Source: a virus. From it: DNA of 13,007 nucleotides. Below the pieces are notes generated by a model, which saw nothing but the letters and a program-made list of their open reading frames with translations, had not been told where the DNA came from and did not search any database. The DNA is taken from the UHGV virus genome UHGV-0203085, one strand, 5' to 3'. The position numbers were made by a program, and so were the translations under genes. Below are positions 2,056 to 7,964 of the stretch, in pieces; position 1 is the stretch's first letter, and the number at the start of each line of letters is the position of its first letter.

Positions 2056-2107
2056 TATTCCAACATTTACAATTGAGCGGAATAACTGGAATACGTAAAC
2101 AAATAGT

Positions 2108-2143
2108 TTGCACACCCCAATATAATAGGGTACTATTCAGTTA
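2108..2143 (+). promoter_or_regulatory. promoter-like element A: TTGCAC, 17 nt, TACTAT, then conserved TCAGTTA
   Basis: The 28-bp core ccaatataatagggtactattcagttaa is identical to element B. -35-like TTGCAC at 2108-2113, -10-like TACTAT at 2131-2136; an embedded TATAAT lies in the spacer. It is followed by AGGAGG and the ATG at 2162. Confidence 0.45.
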
Positions 2144-2161
2144 ACTTAAACAGGAGGGTGT

Positions 2162-2407
2162 ATGCAGGAGTTACCTAGTTTCGAACGTGAGTTCATTAGC
2201 GGTTTCATACCGGTTACTAATTTCAGTATACAGGATTTATTTGACTTAAGAGAAAACGGCAGACTTTGGGTGTGCAATGCCAAGGATGTTTCAAACGCTA
2301 GAGTATGGAACTTTAGTTTAATGCGCCGCCCGAACAAATCTGGTGAAGGTGCTGTTGGCATGGATTTGTTGCGGCGCAAAGGTAAGCTATTCATGAGAGT
2401 GCAGTAA
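2162..2407 (+). CDS. hypothetical protein, 81 aa (moron-like cassette A)
   Basis: ATG 2162 with AGGAGG 6 nt upstream; own promoter-like element upstream and an intrinsic terminator immediately downstream; opposite in orientation to the flanking minus-strand genes. Confidence 0.6.
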   Translation: MQELPSFEREFISGFIPVTNFSIQDLFDLRENGRLWVCNAKDVSNARVWNFSLMRRPNKSGEGAVGMDLLRRKGKLFMRVQ

Positions 2408-2411
2408 AACT

Positions 2412-2434
2412 AAGGCCCCGTTATGGGGCCTTTT
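2412..2434. terminator. bidirectional intrinsic terminator (stem AAGGCCCC / GGGGCCTT, loop GTTAT)
   Basis: 8-bp GC-rich stem at 2412-2419 and 2425-2432, followed by TTTT on the plus strand and by AGTTTTA on the minus strand. It sits between the stop of the + ORF (2407) and the stop of the minus ORF (2436). Confidence 0.6.
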
Positions 2435-2435
2435 A

Positions 2436-2897
2436 TCATTCTGGCTTCGTAACCTTCGCCGCTCTACTTACCACCTCTACACCATCGGCATCAGTAACTT
2501 TAACGAAGTATTCACCGACAGCATTAACCGTCAGAGAAAGAGTCTCTTCCGGGGCATTTACTACTTCCTTTCCGTCCTTGTACCAGGTCAGCACATACGG
2601 TGCTTTGCCTGCCTTAGCCTCGACAGTGATGATTGCGCTGCCGTCTGCCAGTTCCGTGTCTTTCGGTTGCACGGAGAAATACACGTCGCCCGCGTCCGCC
2701 AGATACGGAATTTCATAAAGCATACCCGCCGCCGGTAGTGCAATACCAGTTTTATCCGCAAACGGCATATCGTCTACTGGTGTACCGAGTACACTTTCAT
2801 CTTCAATAAATACCACATTCTCGCCGGAGCCAGACACGCGGGCGTACTGGACTACGCGACGCGACGGCACATCAGTTACTTTGAAAAATCCCATCAT
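2436..2897 (-). CDS. Ig-like (BIG-type) domain protein, 153 aa, probable virion-associated or decoration protein
   Basis: ATG 2895-2897 overlaps the TAA of the upstream head morphogenesis gene (TAATG coupling). C-terminal YVLTWYKDGKEVVNA...TLSLTVNAVGEYFVKVTDADG has the alternating pattern of an Ig-like beta sandwich. Confidence 0.6.
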   Translation of the reverse strand: MMGFFKVTDVPSRRVVQYARVSGSGENVVFIEDESVLGTPVDDMPFADKTGIALPAAGMLYEIPYLADAGDVYFSVQPKDTELADGSAIITVEAKAGKAPYVLTWYKDGKEVVNAPEETLSLTVNAVGEYFVKVTDADGVEVVSRAAKVTKPE

Positions 2898-4756
2898 TAT
2901 TCCCCTTTCAGATAATCAGCAACACGTTTATCGAGTTCCGCCATCTGCTTAAGTGTCAGCGGATTCCCGAAACCATCTACAGATATTACGCGAAACTCTT
3001 CCGGCGATATACCGCTGTTACGGAAAATCTTACCTCGCACCGGGCCGAGTGCTTCATCCACGAACCATGCCGGTTGTTGTTCAAGGAACTCGTAGTAAGT
3101 GGTGTCCGCGCTTACCTGAGTACCGCCGTCCGCACCCTTAGCTGCGCGTTTCGCTCCTTTATCGAGGAAGTCGAACTCTGAACTGATCACAGGCGCGGTT
3201 GTTGAGCGGCAGTTATGTGCTATAATTCCATTAGCAAGATACCAGTTCTGTTCATTTTCGAGGTTATAAACATGCCCGCAAAAATCAGCTTCACTAAAGA
3301 CCAAATCGACAACATCATCAAGCTCTACACCGACGGCATCGGACCAGTTGAAATCGGAAAGATTATCGGCGTTTCGTGTAGTCCAGTCATACGCGTTCTC
3401 AGAGAGAACGGCGTTACCATTCGCGGAGGCAGCGACGCTATGTTCATCCGAATGGCTAAAGCTACTCCCGAGGAGCGCCTCGCTCTCTCCGCCGCGGCGC
3501 ATGAAGCTGTCCGAGGGAGAAAGGCCGACCATGCTGAACTGCTTCGCAGAGCCAAAGCCAGGGAGGGAGTCATCAACGCCGGCAGTCACTGGGAGTTCCT
3601 TGTCAATGATTTGCTTATTCAGTCCGGACTTGACTTTATCCCAGGAAAGGCGGTCGACAAGTACAATCTCGACTTCGCCGTCGGTACCGTCGCCGTGGAA
3701 GTCTTCGGGGGAGGTTGGGCTTGTACTGACCGCCGCCGGATTGACCGTTACATTAGCCGCACTAAACAAATCGGAGAACTTGGCTACAACGTTGTGTTCC
3801 TTATGCTTGAGAGAGAGCGCAGAGTCCTTAGCGCACACGAGCTTGTCACCTACATTGAGAAGGCCGGAAGCAACCCAACCACTGGCGGTCAATACCTGGT
3901 GGTTTGGGGTGATAGACAAGGTGCGACCGGACTTTGTAGAGACATAGACTATAGTGCCTTTGTACGCCCGTTTAAAAATGTTAGAAACAGGGCTACCGGT
4001 AGATACTACAGTGTCCCCAAGTAAACAATTAGGGTGGGCCGGAGGCATCGGCCCTTTACCAATTTCCCACGTCATCCCGTCCCTGGCTCTGCAAATCGTA
4101 CTGGTACGACTATCAAGCGTTGACACCCACTCGTATTTCTCGATGATGTCGTCGTTCTGGCGGTACGTCTCGTTGCGGGCCTCGTTGGATACGTGAGCCA
4201 GCGCGGTGCGGATTACGGTAGCTGCATTACGTTCAGAGATGTCCGCCAGTCCACCAGCGCCTACGACATTCTTAACAATCTGCCGTGTCGTCTGGCCTTG
4301 GACAAAGCCCATCTTAACGCCGGTTACCAGGCGCGATACTTCTGTTTCACCCCAGCCCGACATCAGCTTAGTGAAGTCAACCGGCTTGTCGCTTAATGAT
4401 AAGGGTTGAAACTCGGCAGCGGCCCATACCTGTTCCGCGGTAGGCGTAATAAACTCGGCGTTAACGTTGGTGGCCAGCGTTTTTACGTTCCACTCTGCCT
4501 CATAAGCCGCCAGTTCTTTAAGGTCTTCTGTCAGTTTTGTTTGCCAGTCACCCGTAAGTCCCGCCAGTGCTTCTTCGAGGTCGCGTAACAGCTTATTTAG
4601 CCGCGCGGTACTACGACCGTCGTCGCCGAATAACAGCACCTGCCGTTTGATTTCGTCCCGCATCTCCTTAAGGAACGGCGCGAGGTCTTTCACTTCACCG
4701 GATGCGGTGCGTTGCAGCCATATCTGGTGGCTGATTAGAGATGTAAGTAAGCTCAT
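2897..4756 (-). CDS. head morphogenesis protein (Phage Mu F / SPP1 gp7-like) interrupted by an intein
   Basis: Long minus ORF; best start is ATG 4754-4756 with AGGAGGG 3-4 nt upstream (track ORF begins at TTG 4813 with no RBS). The N-extein ends ...WVSTLDSRTSTICRARDGMTWEIGKGPMPPAHPN, which I recall as the Mu F signature preceding HPNCRC. The gene lies directly downstream of the portal gene, as expected by synteny. Confidence 0.8.
   Translation of the reverse strand: MSLLTSLISHQIWLQRTASGEVKDLAPFLKEMRDEIKRQVLLFGDDGRSTARLNKLLRDLEEALAGLTGDWQTKLTEDLKELAAYEAEWNVKTLATNVNAEFITPTAEQVWAAAEFQPLSLSDKPVDFTKLMSGWGETEVSRLVTGVKMGFVQGQTTRQIVKNVVGAGGLADISERNAATVIRTALAHVSNEARNETYRQNDDIIEKYEWVSTLDSRTSTICRARDGMTWEIGKGPMPPAHPNCLLGDTVVSTGSPVSNIFKRAYKGTIVYVSTKSGRTLSITPNHQVLTASGWVASGLLNVGDKLVCAKDSALSLKHKEHNVVAKFSDLFSAANVTVNPAAVSTSPTSPEDFHGDGTDGEVEIVLVDRLSWDKVKSGLNKQIIDKELPVTAGVDDSLPGFGSAKQFSMVGLSPSDSFMRRGGESEALLGSSFSHSDEHSVAASANGNAVLSENAYDWTTRNADNLSDFNWSDAVGVELDDVVDLVFSEADFCGHVYNLENEQNWYLANGIIAHNCRSTTAPVISSEFDFLDKGAKRAAKGADGGTQVSADTTYYEFLEQQPAWFVDEALGPVRGKIFRNSGISPEEFRVISVDGFGNPLTLKQMAELDKRVADYLKGE
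3212..4027 (-). mobile_element. intein, 272 codons (Cys1 ... His-Asn, +1 Cys)
   Basis: In-frame insertion beginning CLLGDTVVS (block A; Cys codon = plus 4025-4027), with TLSITPNHQVLT (block B, T-x-x-H) and GWVASGLLNVGDKLV in the N-terminal Hint part. The C-terminal Hint part is ADFCGHVYNLENEQNWYLANGIIAHN, followed by +1 Cys (plus 3209-3211). The central region is S/A/D/G-rich with no LAGLIDADG, HNH or GIY-YIG motifs. Confidence 0.75.
3272..4024 (+). CDS. antisense-nested ORF, 250 aa: HTH plus DUF559/Vsr-like (PD-(D/E)xK-type) putative homing endonuclease
   Basis: ATG 3272 with GAGG about 8 nt upstream (an in-frame ATG at 3215 gives the 269-aa track ORF). N-terminal HTH-like IGPVEIGKIIGVSCSPVIRVLRENGV. 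Central block WEFLVNDLLIQSGLDF...YNLDFAVGTVAVEVFGGGW...RRRIDRYISRTKQIGELGYNVVFL matches the DUF559/Vsr pattern (D-F ... hEhDG.W ... R ... GY.V) as I remember it. The ORF is bounded by antisense stops at 3203-3205 and 4022-4024, so it spans the intein to within 2 codons. Confidence 0.55.
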   Translation: MPAKISFTKDQIDNIIKLYTDGIGPVEIGKIIGVSCSPVIRVLRENGVTIRGGSDAMFIRMAKATPEERLALSAAAHEAVRGRKADHAELLRRAKAREGVINAGSHWEFLVNDLLIQSGLDFIPGKAVDKYNLDFAVGTVAVEVFGGGWACTDRRRIDRYISRTKQIGELGYNVVFLMLERERRVLSAHELVTYIEKAGSNPTTGGQYLVVWGDRQGATGLCRDIDYSAFVRPFKNVRNRATGRYYSVPK

Positions 4757-4800
4757 AAGCCCTCCTGTAGTATCGCCAGTGTAACGCATAAAAATAATAT

Positions 4801-4836
4801 TTGCAGACACCAATATAATAGGGTACTATTCAGTTA
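4801..4836 (+). promoter_or_regulatory. promoter-like element B: TTGCAG, 17 nt, TACTAT, then conserved TCAGTTA
   Basis: The 28-bp core (4809-4836) is identical to element A. It lies in the divergent intergenic region between the head morphogenesis start (4756, minus) and the + ORF at 4861. Confidence 0.45.
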
Positions 4837-4860
4837 AACGACAACGAGGAGGAAGAAAAC

Positions 4861-5016
4861 ATGATTAATGCTAAAGAAGAGTTGCTCGCCCATCTGGATG
4901 GTAAAGATGTAGTTAAATGCGCCTGGTTTGCAGATTATGACGCAGATTACGGTTTCGTTAAGGGAGTAAATGGCTCCTGCGGGAGAATTACTCTCGCGGA
5001 GAATGGGAAAGCCTAA
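4861..5016 (+). CDS. hypothetical small protein, 51 aa (moron-like cassette B, first ORF; not in track)
   Basis: ATG 4861 with AGGAGG 8 nt upstream; translation MINAKEELLAHLDGKDVVKCAWFADYDADYGFVKGVNGSCGRITLAENGKA; TAA 5014-5016 overlaps the next ATG (TAATG). Confidence 0.45.
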   Translation: MINAKEELLAHLDGKDVVKCAWFADYDADYGFVKGVNGSCGRITLAENGKA

Positions 5017-5180
5017 TGGCTGCGCTTGATTTTGAATATCACAACGGTTACGGCGGTCAAAACTTCTTCGGCGTAATTTGGTACGAAGATGGTACATGGT
5101 CTTCTCGCGGAGAATACGATGGTTCTGAATGGTGGGAATATAATGCCGTGCCAGATGTGCCAGGAGAACTTAAGCGCTAA
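5016..5180 (+). CDS. hypothetical small Gly/aromatic-rich protein, 54 aa (moron-like cassette B, second ORF; not in track)
   Basis: ATG 5016-5018 coupled to the upstream stop; translation MAALDFEYHNGYGGQNFFGVIWYEDGTWSSRGEYDGSEWWEYNAVPDVPGELKR; TAA 5178-5180 followed 4 nt later by a terminator hairpin. Confidence 0.45.
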   Translation: MAALDFEYHNGYGGQNFFGVIWYEDGTWSSRGEYDGSEWWEYNAVPDVPGELKR

Positions 5181-5184
5181 AATT

Positions 5185-5210
5185 AAGGCCCCTTTCGGGG
5201 CCTTTTCTTA
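5185..5210. terminator. bidirectional intrinsic terminator (stem AAGGCCCC / GGGGCCTT, loop TTTC)
   Basis: Same stem sequence as the terminator at 2412-2434. Followed by TTCTTA on the plus strand and by AATTTTA on the minus strand. It lies between the + cassette (stop 5180) and the portal stop (5208-5210). Confidence 0.6.
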
Positions 5211-6701
5211 TTGCTGCTGTTGGTCTTGTGGAGATTGTTCCTGTCTTGCTGTAGCAGGAATCTCCCCTGCCACCTGAGTGGCAGCACCTAACGGCAGCGG
5301 TGTATCCTCGATAGCGTTCTGAATATCCTCGTCAGTCCAGTCGGTTACTCCAGCTTTACGCAATGCCGCGTAGTAAGCGGTAGCCGGTAACAGGCCCGCG
5401 TTAATATCAGCCATCCACTGTGCGCGGTCCTGAGCGGTCATCGGTTGCAGGAAGAACTCCATGTTCAGCTTGAACTCAATTTCTGTGCCTTCACGCAACC
5501 CCAGCATAGCAGCCACCCAGCGCAACGCATCGGTATACGCCATGCTTACGTTACGTGCGATTGTTGCCATAACAGACGTATCGGCACCACGTTGCAGGCG
5601 GGCTGATTCAGCGGTTATTTGCTGTGTCGGGGTAATAAGCTGCGCCCCAATCTGGATCGCCTGATTCTCTTTATCCAGCATGTTCTGTTTGGCAAGGTTG
5701 TTCTCTCCTGCCTGAACCAGAAACGCATTGCCGCCGTAACCGATGTTATGACCTGAACGCGACCCCATGCGAACGCCGTGGGGGTTGGCTTCCGCCCACT
5801 GTTCCATGCTCATGTTCTCGCCCGGGGCGATGAACAGAGTGGGTTGACCTACAACGAAGCTGGACTCCTCATTGTCCGCGCTGTTGCGAAAATGCCCGAT
5901 ATTAAGCTCGGCCAACGGCAGCAAAGGCGCATCGTCAATGGTTGCATCGTTGTTGCTTGCCCCGATGAACGTGAACGGGATTTTGCCGCGTAACTGTTCG
6001 CCGAGTTCCGGGAATATCTCGATTACTTCGTCCTGAGCGCCACCTTCGGCATCGAAGCGGTAAATGCGCTGACGATAGCGATCTTCGATAATGTCAAGGA
6101 CGCGGTACTGTTCACCAAATTTTGTTTCGAACTCTGCGCCTGGTTCCGAATATTCCCATACCTCACGCAGCACGACCATTGTCACGCGGTTCACTGAACC
6201 GATACGGGTCAGGCGCCAGTTGATGATGTTCTCTGCGGTGTAAAACGCGATGACCGGGTTTAATAACCCCGCGTTCTGTTCTGCTGCCGTCGCTGCGGCT
6301 GTCTCCGGCGCATCCACCAGCAAGCCTCCACGCCCCACTGAGTCAATCTCCATCAGCGTATCCTGCGCGTGCTGCCACAGCCCGACACCAGAACCGTCTG
6401 CATTGCGTAACAGGTATTCCAGTTCAGGCGGGATAATCTGTTCAGGGTCTTTGCGCATCACCGACCCCACCATCCCCGCCAGGGTACGTTTAGTGAAGTT
6501 GTAGCAGATAGCGCCGTTTTCGTATTCTTCCTGGCGCTGTGCTGCGTAGACCGGGTCGGGTTCATTCTTCCCGACGTTGCGCAGGTAACGGATAAGGTCG
6601 CCTTCCAGAGCGTGGCGGACCTTCTGCCATTTATCGAAGTGATGCAGCCATTCCCGGTGTTTTGTCTTAACACCCTGATTCTGACCGTTCATAGTTAACA
6701 T
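5208..6701 (-). CDS. portal protein (putative), 497 aa
   Basis: ATG 6699-6701 with AAGAGGA 7 nt upstream; size and position immediately after the large terminase and before the Mu F-like gene fit the usual terS-terL-portal-MuF synteny. No motif-level confirmation is possible by eye. Confidence 0.65.
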   Translation of the reverse strand: MLTMNGQNQGVKTKHREWLHHFDKWQKVRHALEGDLIRYLRNVGKNEPDPVYAAQRQEEYENGAICYNFTKRTLAGMVGSVMRKDPEQIIPPELEYLLRNADGSGVGLWQHAQDTLMEIDSVGRGGLLVDAPETAAATAAEQNAGLLNPVIAFYTAENIINWRLTRIGSVNRVTMVVLREVWEYSEPGAEFETKFGEQYRVLDIIEDRYRQRIYRFDAEGGAQDEVIEIFPELGEQLRGKIPFTFIGASNNDATIDDAPLLPLAELNIGHFRNSADNEESSFVVGQPTLFIAPGENMSMEQWAEANPHGVRMGSRSGHNIGYGGNAFLVQAGENNLAKQNMLDKENQAIQIGAQLITPTQQITAESARLQRGADTSVMATIARNVSMAYTDALRWVAAMLGLREGTEIEFKLNMEFFLQPMTAQDRAQWMADINAGLLPATAYYAALRKAGVTDWTDEDIQNAIEDTPLPLGAATQVAGEIPATARQEQSPQDQQQQ

Positions 6702-6713
6702 TGAATAATCCTC

Positions 6714-7964
6714 TTAAAGTGCGAAAGTCACCGGGATGTTGATTACTGGTTTAACCACCGGCATCTCATAAACTACAGGATAGCCGAGAGCATCCGCCAT
6801 ATGGTCGATGATGCCGTCTTTAGCTGGCTCTCCGTTATCGTCGTATGCCTGCTGCTCCAGCGTCTTCGCTATCTCAGGGCATAAGTGGTCGTTAACCCAC
6901 AGCTTACCTTTTTCCAGTGCGGTATTCACGGCTAAAACACGGTCTTTAACCGGAGGGTTGGCGGATTTAGCGCGAACATCGAACCCGGCCTGCTGGAGTA
7001 ATGCAATATCAGAGATTGACGCTGAGTTGGTTTTGCGGTTCTTGCCGCTGGCGTCAGGGTAGACGACAATACGGTGTCCTTGCGACTTCCACTTCTCGTT
7101 AATTACACGCACGGTGTCCGGCGTATCGAACAGGCCTTTCAGTTCTGCTACCGCGTGCCAGCCGTCTTTACGTTGCACATACACGGCGCTTGCGTTCTTC
7201 GTAACGTTGAAGTCCTGCCCGATGTACAGTGTGTCACCAGGTTGAATTGTCTCTTTGCTGCGGTGCTTACGTCGGTCATAGGCGTAATACACGCTGCCGG
7301 ATGTCAGGTTGACGAACTCACCATTAAGATACGCGTTAATCAGTTGCGCCGGGTAAGTCTCGGTCAGTGAGCTGATGTAATCCTGCGGCAGGAATCGCGC
7401 ATTCTCGTGTGTGGAAGCCTGCACCATCGAGTAACTCGGCGTCGGATTCTCTTTGAACTTGGCGTAGACGAACTTGAACCCTTCCGGCGTCGTGGTGACA
7501 GAGATGTGGTTAATTACACCTGGTATAACCAGACGCATACGGGCTACGATTTTGTTCCACGCCAGCTCAGCTTTCTCGCGGCTCAATACGTCCAGCTCAT
7601 CCACGACCGCAGCCGCGATTTTGAAGCCGACTATCGAGCCGGGGTTATCCATCGAGCGGCAGATAACAGTTCCGAGCACCGTCTTACCGCGAGTAACCAC
7701 GACTTCTTTGTCGCCGGATTTAACCAGCACATCAAGGCCGAGGAGGTTAGCCGCTTCCTCGAATGTAGGGTAGAAGATGTCGCGGATAGCCGGGTATGTC
7801 GGACCGAAGTAGCCCAGGCGCGTACCTGGGTGCTTGAGTATAAACGTAAGCAGGTCCAGGCAGCCAACAAATGTCTTACCACTACCGAAGCCCCCGACAT
7901 AGGCCTTGTATTTGTTATCGCAATTCAGGAACAGTGCCTGTGGTGCGGATAGCTGAATACTCAT
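6714..7964 (-). CDS. terL: terminase large subunit, 416 aa
   Basis: Walker A ATPase motif YVGGFGSGKT near the N-terminus (residues about 23-32); ATG 7962-7964 overlaps the stop of the upstream gene (ATGA); followed by the portal gene. Confidence 0.85.
   Translation of the reverse strand: MSIQLSAPQALFLNCDNKYKAYVGGFGSGKTFVGCLDLLTFILKHPGTRLGYFGPTYPAIRDIFYPTFEEAANLLGLDVLVKSGDKEVVVTRGKTVLGTVICRSMDNPGSIVGFKIAAAVVDELDVLSREKAELAWNKIVARMRLVIPGVINHISVTTTPEGFKFVYAKFKENPTPSYSMVQASTHENARFLPQDYISSLTETYPAQLINAYLNGEFVNLTSGSVYYAYDRRKHRSKETIQPGDTLYIGQDFNVTKNASAVYVQRKDGWHAVAELKGLFDTPDTVRVINEKWKSQGHRIVVYPDASGKNRKTNSASISDIALLQQAGFDVRAKSANPPVKDRVLAVNTALEKGKLWVNDHLCPEIAKTLEQQAYDDNGEPAKDGIIDHMADALGYPVVYEMPVVKPVINIPVTFAL

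Follow-up and report, generated by a model that had tools for sequence, protein, structure and literature searches.

Analysis of a 13,007-nucleotide (nt) stretch of the virus genome UHGV-0203085 (the window, numbered from its first letter) indicated that two small overlapping open reading frames (ORFs) on its plus strand, ORF1 and ORF2, belong to one gene. Positions 4861-5180 very probably represent a single 106-codon gene that lacks one G, in which the shift of frame is not programmed and which is inactive as written; we place the probability of this reading at about 0.92. The window gene is a disrupted allele of the phage protein family PHROG 3972 and not an intact member of it, and it is part of an antisense insert that, in a Kagunavirus-like phage, separates the MuF-like head-morphogenesis gene from the portal gene. 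An original prediction, made from the letters of the window, had described a moron-like cassette of two micro-ORFs and had raised the possibility of one gene split by a programmed frameshift, a mutation or a sequencing error. A single split gene is what the comparison with relatives supports, with one ORF in the relatives and one base too few in the window. As a disrupted or mis-recorded copy of a phage gene family that is catalogued but uncharacterised, the locus is ordinary, and no new gene arrangement is present. The main value of this result is a correct annotation, namely one frameshifted gene or pseudogene instead of two micro-proteins or a recoding site.

The missing base and the split gene

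An uninterrupted ORF of 105-109 codons was found in five close relatives, and in four of the five it occupies the same slot between the MuF-like and portal genes. Where the original prediction had looked to related genomes for the same two separate ORFs as the sign of two genes, the close relatives thus show the opposite. The single-ORF proteins QEA10339 (Salmonella phage Shemara, 105 aa), P0001, P0002 and P0003 (106-109 aa) and the product of L019, an IMG/VR contig, are 78-96% identical to the window product repaired by the addition of one G and cover 99% of it. The repaired product was 89-96% identical to P0001, P0002, P0003 and the L019 product, with the L019 copy at 96%. P0001, P0002 and P0003 are found on more than 30 contigs in the order MuF-like gene (minus strand), family gene (plus strand) and portal gene (minus strand), as in the window. 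In a blastn search of phage records, the whole cassette was matched only in Shemara, at 74% identity and with one annotated gene of 105 codons.

DNA alignments against L003, L009, L013, L019 and Shemara placed a single 1-nt gap in the window, within a run of G, and this gap is the sole length difference inside the gene. At 4960-4967 the window reads AAGGGAGT and the relatives read AAGGGGCGT or GAGGGGAGT. Over the break site, the window has GTTAAGGGAGTAAATGG, L003 has GTTAAGGGGCGTAAATGG, and L013 and L019 have GTTGAGGGGAGTAAATGG, which correspond to the codons GTT AAG GGA GTA AAT GG in the window, GTT AAG GGG CGT AAA TGG in L003 and GTT GAG GGG AGT AAA TGG in L013 and L019. Homology in the ORF1 frame stops at K-G (4960-4965). 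The ORF2 frame has a TAA at 4959-4961 and is open from 4962; its homology starts directly there, at G-S-K-W (4962 onward), and upstream of the ATG it reads GSKWLLRENYSRGEWESL, identical to P0003. Past codon 35, the ORF1 frame (VNGSCGRITLAENGKA) has no homologue, and its out-of-frame tail peptide is VNGSCGRITLAENGK.

The two ORFs overlap by one base in CC-TAATG-GC at 5012-5020, and the original prediction implied a break at this junction. The actual site, 52 nt farther upstream, is the run of G at 4962-4964. The ATG of ORF2 corresponds to an internal Met codon (...ESLMAAL...) of the single gene, which is Ile in Shemara, and TAATG is a by-product of the frameshift.

The repaired product is an acidic accessory protein rich in aromatic residues (19%), with 106 aa, a mass of 12.3 kDa and a pI (isoelectric point) of 4.5. 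A homology search with the fused product, which had been proposed together with the original prediction, gave a full-length family match: residues 1-106 aligned with positions 1-92 of the 113 positions of phrog_3972 (E value, 7.1e-24). ORF2 alone matched profile positions 40-92 (E value, 4.8e-19), ORF1 alone had no PHROG match in the profile search, and neither ORF had a Pfam match. ORF2 carries the invariant family motif GYGGQ...W...DGTW..RGEYDGSEWW. In a family alignment of 118 sequences, all 11 invariant residues (L43, Y63, Q70, W77, W83, R86, E88, Y89, D90, G91 and E93 in P0003 numbering) are kept in the repaired product; L43 falls in the stretch that neither micro-ORF encodes. Gly, Tyr, Trp, Asp and Glu, in which the original prediction had described both products as rich, account for 50% of the residues in ORF2 and for only 33% in ORF1.

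The single-ORF form is the norm of the family, at roughly 100-130 codons, and the window allele falls short of it by the 1-nt deletion. A search with the joined protein yielded 389 homologues. The best 120 of these range from 97 to 133 aa and span 87-100% of the query; those nearest to it among the 120 have 105-109 aa and 82-93% identity. A profile search of 1.84 billion representative proteins gave 2,516 family clusters at 50% identity, and nearly all of the best 150 match in one stretch over profile positions 1-104. Of the 212 matches in phage records, 210 span 80% or more of the query in a single place. A separate irregular member, P0008 (103 aa), comes from a Shemara-like Logan contig of 44.7 kb and differs in an added DSDY repeat and a C-terminus that diverges after SEWW (FRMVGVQ). 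It looks like the product of a short tandem duplication or a frameshift, and is a further damaged or mis-assembled allele.

The consequence of the break was considered on an AlphaFold2 model of P0003 (predicted local distance difference test score, pLDDT, 85; predicted template modelling score, pTM, 0.76). The model contains a helix (4-12), two strands (18-25 and 40-43), a second helix (49-58) and a three-stranded meander (72-98). The break maps to a low-confidence, indel-prone loop before strand 40-43. ORF1 retains the first helix and the first strand only, ORF2 retains the meander and the last part of the second helix, and residues 36-52, which are in neither product, comprise strand 40-43, most of helix 49-58 and the invariant Leu. 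The proposed course of events is that one G of an ancestral GGGG run was lost at 4962-4964. Translation from the real start would then leave the frame after codon 35, add 16 junk codons and stop at 5014-5016. The remaining 70 codons would stay open in the -1 frame, where the internal Met codon mimics the start of a second ORF. With neither product holding residues 36-52 of the fold, the split gene would have lost its function and would be inactive as written.

Origin of the frame break

The gene contains a 13-bp direct repeat (TCTCGCGGAGAAT) at the two positions reported in the original prediction, which were confirmed (Table 1). When the 320-nt gene was shuffled 5000 times with its dinucleotides preserved, an exact 13-nt repeat arose in 0.1% of cases; the repeat is therefore not attributable to chance. 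Repeats of at least 10 nt occurred in 4.4% of the shuffles, and 9- to 10-mers are unremarkable; the shorter repeats are GCGGGAGAAT at 4979-4988 and GCGGAGAAT at 4996 and 5107. The two copies had been described as lying in different reading frames. In fact both start at 0 modulo 3, the phase of ORF2, and the appearance of different frames arose because copy 1 had been assigned to ORF1. Copy 2 is identical in all close relatives, and in the relatives the site of copy 1 agrees with copy 2 in 11-12 of 13 positions. An internal duplication of the protein was examined as the source of the repeat and ruled out, with copy 1 being unconserved across the family and matched at 11-12 of 13 positions in close relatives. 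The repeat is a coincidence specific to this lineage, in which similar peptides use similar codons, neither an ancient duplication nor a recoding signal, because the copies share their phase, the close relatives match at 11-12 of 13 positions and the wider family shows no conservation.

A programmed origin, one of the three proposed, would involve a -1 frameshift at G_GGA (4962-4965), aided by an RNA hairpin at 4974-5001, and would yield the 106-aa protein together with the 51-aa product. ORF2 does lie in the -1 frame, the ancestral K-G-S-K-W would be restored exactly if the P-site tRNA-Gly slipped by -1 from GGA to GGG, and the hairpin starts 8 nt downstream of GGA, where 5-9 nt would be expected for a stimulatory structure. 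However, no canonical X_XXY_YYZ heptamer occurs anywhere in ORF1, where only the tetramers G_GGA (4962) and A_AAT (4968) were found, and the A-site codon would be GUA, which is not known as a stalling codon in Escherichia coli. The hairpin, of about 11 bp, is modest (z-score of the 81-nt fold containing it, -1.9), and its arms pair equally in L013; because it also forms in this relative with an intact frame, it is not in itself evidence for recoding. The two-frame layout was seen in none of the five close relatives or of the family clusters listed (best 150 of ~2,500). Without a slippery heptamer and with the split absent from relatives, a programmed origin is unsupported, and we consider it highly improbable. 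The other functional explanation is that of two genuine micro-proteins, coupled by termination and reinitiation at TAATG, with separate functions or reassembled as a split protein. The TAATG overlap is a classic coupling signal and ORF2 keeps the most conserved motif of the family, but where ORF2 starts with ATG the relatives have a conserved Met or Ile codon within their single gene, the final 16 residues of ORF1 have no homologue, and one strand, most of a helix and the invariant Leu (residues 36-52) are absent from both products. This explanation is scarcely credible and was dropped because the relatives, none of which has the two-ORF layout, show one ORF.

Under the preferred reading of one gene short of one G, the base may have been lost in the phage or in the record; of the origins originally proposed, mutation and sequencing error are thus the two that stand. 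A real, recent mutation in a dispensable accessory gene has about an even chance or slightly better. A record artefact, in which the phage carries GGGG and an intact 106-codon gene and the G was dropped from the consensus, is a serious candidate at somewhat less than even odds. An artefact would agree with a difference of a single base in a homopolymer, and with a gene that is otherwise perfect. The dN/dS (ratio of nonsynonymous to synonymous substitution rates) of the repaired gene against relatives is 0.20-0.27 and the gene has no other lesion; this purifying selection without further damage means that the event is either recent or artefactual. In favour of an artefact, and against a programmed shift, the GGG deletion allele was found nowhere else when viral, metagenome (scanned twice) and genome collections were searched for the exact pattern. 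The proteins of ORF1, ORF2 and the portal gene likewise had no exact match, and the genome of the window is therefore absent from these collections. Also in favour of an artefact, comparable one-base breaks of the PHROG 3972 gene are present in other database records. In Salmonella phage 8sent1748 (MT653146; L017 500-846), an independent 1-nt deletion (GAATT-GG, against GAATTCGG in T5) splits a T5-type homologue, the halves of which are annotated as hypothetical proteins of 38 and 51 aa (QNI21486 and QNI21485). Single-base breaks are recurrent in the records of this family.

Some considerations weigh against the preferred reading or one of its branches. The sequence by itself does not separate a real mutation from a one-base error of the record. 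Mildly against the artefact branch, the G run is only 4 nt long, whereas homopolymer sequencing errors typically affect longer runs, and elsewhere the window looks clean. Each of the 17 E2010 proteins that have a counterpart in the window matches it at full length and in a single frame, and these neighbouring genes (8.4 kb) hold 69 other homopolymer runs of at least 4 nt, 12 of them of at least 5 nt, all without a frame break; homopolymer errors are therefore not a general feature of this sequence. G_GGA lies exactly at the break with a hairpin 8 nt downstream, and low-level recoding is physically possible. A real GGG with a leaky, non-canonical, hairpin-assisted -1 slip of tRNA-Gly at G_GGA would yield some full-length protein. 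We regard this as most unlikely; if true, a frameshift mutation in an accessory gene would be partly rescued by a leaky recoding site of new origin. Lastly, a consensus scan for sigma-70 sites called no plus-strand promoter, and the promoter function of the upstream element of the unit is putative.

The antisense unit and its neighbourhood

The unit spans 4780-5212 on the plus strand and is flanked by two minus-strand genes (Table 1). Both ORFs, the AGGAGG, the TAATG overlap, the terminator and the -1 relation of the frames (start positions 1 and 0 modulo 3) were all found where they had been placed originally. The Shemara record annotates a ribosome-binding site at the position equivalent to the AGGAGG of the window. 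The terminator hairpin has 8 pairs, 6 of them G-C, and is followed by TTCTTATT. A minus-strand ORF of 87 aa (4834..5097) was also considered as a real gene and ruled out; conservation and dN/dS follow the plus-strand frame.

Table 1. Coordinates of the split gene, its signals and adjoining features in the window
Feature	Position	Strand	Description
Cassette A, second moron-like unit	2087-2440	+	Same promoter-like element at 2108-2136, AGGAGG at 2152, terminator at 2407-2440
MuF-like head-morphogenesis gene	4756..2900	-	619 aa; full-length match to E2010 protein; Pfam Phage_Mu_F and Intein_splicing
Conserved upstream promoter-like element	4780..4837	+	Core 4801-4829, TTGCAG-N17-TACTAT
Shine-Dalgarno sequence AGGAGG	4847..4852	+	8 nt before ATG at 4861
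Whole gene, PHROG 3972 family	4861..5180	+	320 nt, frameshifted; closest relatives 321 nt
ORF1	4861..5016	+	51 aa; codons 1-35 true N-terminus, codons 36-51 out of frame to a fortuitous stop
Missing-base site	4962..4964	+	GGG in window, GGGG in relatives; from DNA alignments
Stretch in neither micro-ORF product	4965..5015	+	True-frame codons S36-L52 (SKWLLRENYSRGEWESL)
RNA hairpin CUCC-U-GCGGGAG / CUCUCGC-GGAG	4974..5001	+	Arms are the GCGGGAGAAT and CGCGGAG repeats
13-bp direct repeat, copy 1, TCTCGCGGAGAAT	4992..5004	+	True frame encodes S-R-G-E-(W)
ORF2	5016..5180	+	C-terminal 54 codons of the gene; starts at internal Met codon
13-bp direct repeat, copy 2, TCTCGCGGAGAAT	5103..5115	+	S-R-G-E-(Y), inside the invariant motif
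Intrinsic terminator	5185..5212	+	Stem-loop 5185-5204 and T-rich tail; abuts minus-strand portal stop codon 5208-5210
Portal gene	6701..5208	-	DUF4055 in relatives

Morons of lambdoid phages are autonomous units of promoter, gene and terminator inserted between conserved genes. The description of the window unit as moron-like is well founded, as the cassette is present, absent or replaced at the MuF-like/portal junction among relatives. This slot is filled by the PHROG 3972 gene in the window, L003, L009, L013 and L019, and is empty in Snoke and E2010, where a 69-nt spacer is found. In Escherichia phage Shashou (L016, 2078-2599), and likewise in Sciku and phage 26, the slot is occupied behind the same upstream element by a different plus-strand cargo gene, annotated as a DNA polymerase III sliding clamp (173 aa). 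Shemara carries the PHROG 3972 gene and its terminator elsewhere, at the junction of the scaffold and o-spanin genes. This phage group can clearly do without the gene, as it is missing altogether from the closest full genomes, E2010 and Snoke.

The signals of the unit are shared beyond this gene. The terminator directly follows the gene, is kept with it in L003, L009, L013, L019 and Shemara, and is 74% identical to the terminator of cassette A. The 58-nt upstream element is identical in L003, L009, L013 and L019, is 81% identical to 2087-2144 upstream of cassette A, and also precedes other plus-strand cargo genes in many Kagunavirus records. Its 29-nt core recurs in cassette A with 2 mismatches, where 0 occurrences are expected by chance. 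The promoter-like element of the original prediction is thus conserved and recurrent, but it agrees with the sigma-70 consensus at only 7 of 12 positions (TTGCAG-17-TACTAT) and was not called in the scan. We use the term 'promoter-like' for the conservation of the element, not for its consensus score. A sigma-70-like site on the minus strand (4815-4844, TTGTCG-18-TATTAT) overlaps this element and points to the start of the MuF-like gene at 4756. This suggests back-to-back divergent promoters, such that the MuF-like gene may not need read-through from the portal gene across the cassette.

Cassette A itself contains an ORF of 81 aa (2162..2407) that is 90% identical to E2010 XYO05452 and had no Pfam, NCBIfam or PHROG match. 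This cassette is antisense to the gene that follows, which encodes an Ig-like decoration protein.

Another antisense feature was observed in the MuF-like gene. A plus-strand ORF of 269 aa (3215-4024) almost exactly covers the region of the intein on the minus strand (~3209-4027), and both strands are open over about 810 nt. The ORF is also open, with 97% protein identity, in Snoke, L013 and E2010, and is unannotated in the Snoke and E2010 records. The intein of L003 is a different one, and the antisense open frame there has 365 aa, with 24% identity over 214 aa (tblastn E value, 1.5e-7). The 269-aa product gave weak matches to HTH_7 (Pfam E value, 0.015) and to PHROG DNA-binding families (~5e-4), and a PD-(D/E)xK-like motif was seen by eye at its C-terminus. 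It may be a homing-endonuclease-like gene on the strand opposite the intein. Additionally, L003 has an HNH_3 endonuclease gene (4848-5462, 204 aa) between the portal and large terminase genes; unlike in L003, these two genes are directly adjacent in the window (6701-6714).

Possible function and comparison with known systems

The repaired product and its family had no match in Pfam or NCBIfam, and PADLOC returned only noise. A sequence profile search of the PDB found no relative, and no fold relative of the family was detectable among solved structures. Searches of the literature for the PHROG identifier, the motif and the product name in T5 found no paper. Ten longer family members were scanned for domain fusions; one had an FGE-sulfatase domain and nine had none, which was uninformative.

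Gene neighbourhoods provide a few leads. The T5 homologue AAX12000.1 ('prophage pi3 protein 38-like sequence') is located in the early tRNA region, between putative early promoters. On three unrelated contigs, the PHROG 3972 homologue lies among small early and replication genes. Genes similar to Gad2 (PF26128, Gabija anti-defence 2) are found 1-3 genes from the homologue in two of the three; these loci (L043 5056-5904 and L044 2789-3388) are on unrelated large phage contigs with early modules of DnaB and DNA polymerase. It is tempting to speculate that this small acidic protein could be made early and bind a host factor, serving host takeover or counter-defence. We hold this to be doubtful, because the guess draws only on size, charge, timing and neighbourhood. 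Expression would be expected to be early and by the host RNA polymerase. The family is a functional lead rather than a result: it is large, has a strongly conserved C-terminal motif, occurs in the T5 early region and, on two of the three unrelated contigs, a few genes away from Gad2-like genes, and has spread as a promoter-gene-terminator unit among Guernseyvirinae, with no Pfam or NCBIfam model or fold relative found.

The window gene can be compared with several known systems. It resembles PHROG 3972 members such as Shemara QEA10339.1 and T5 AAX12000.1 in full-length homology, a length of about 105 aa and the invariant motif, but the window copy is one base short and split. The setting also differs, as the gene of T5-type phages is co-directional with its neighbours in the early tRNA region, whereas that of the window is an antisense insert in a block of head genes. 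Phage 8sent1748 is like the window in that a 1-base deletion (relative to T5) cuts a member of the same family into two small annotated ORFs, but it belongs to another lineage (Tequintavirus), and its deletion has another position and sequence context (GAATT-GG).

The unit as a whole is similar to lambdoid morons, being self-contained with its own Shine-Dalgarno sequence, terminator and shared upstream element, and being present, absent or replaced at the same junction among close relatives. The window phage differs from the lambdoid phages in belonging to a virulent siphovirus group (Guernseyvirinae), in which lysogenic conversion is not an expected role. Programmed -1 frameshifts are well known in phages and bacteria, for example in the tail assembly chaperone G/GT and in dnaX. 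The window resembles these systems in having ORFs in the 0 and -1 frames and a structure downstream of a possible slip site. Unlike G/GT and dnaX, however, it has no slippery heptamer, its arrangement is not conserved, and its relatives encode the fused product directly.

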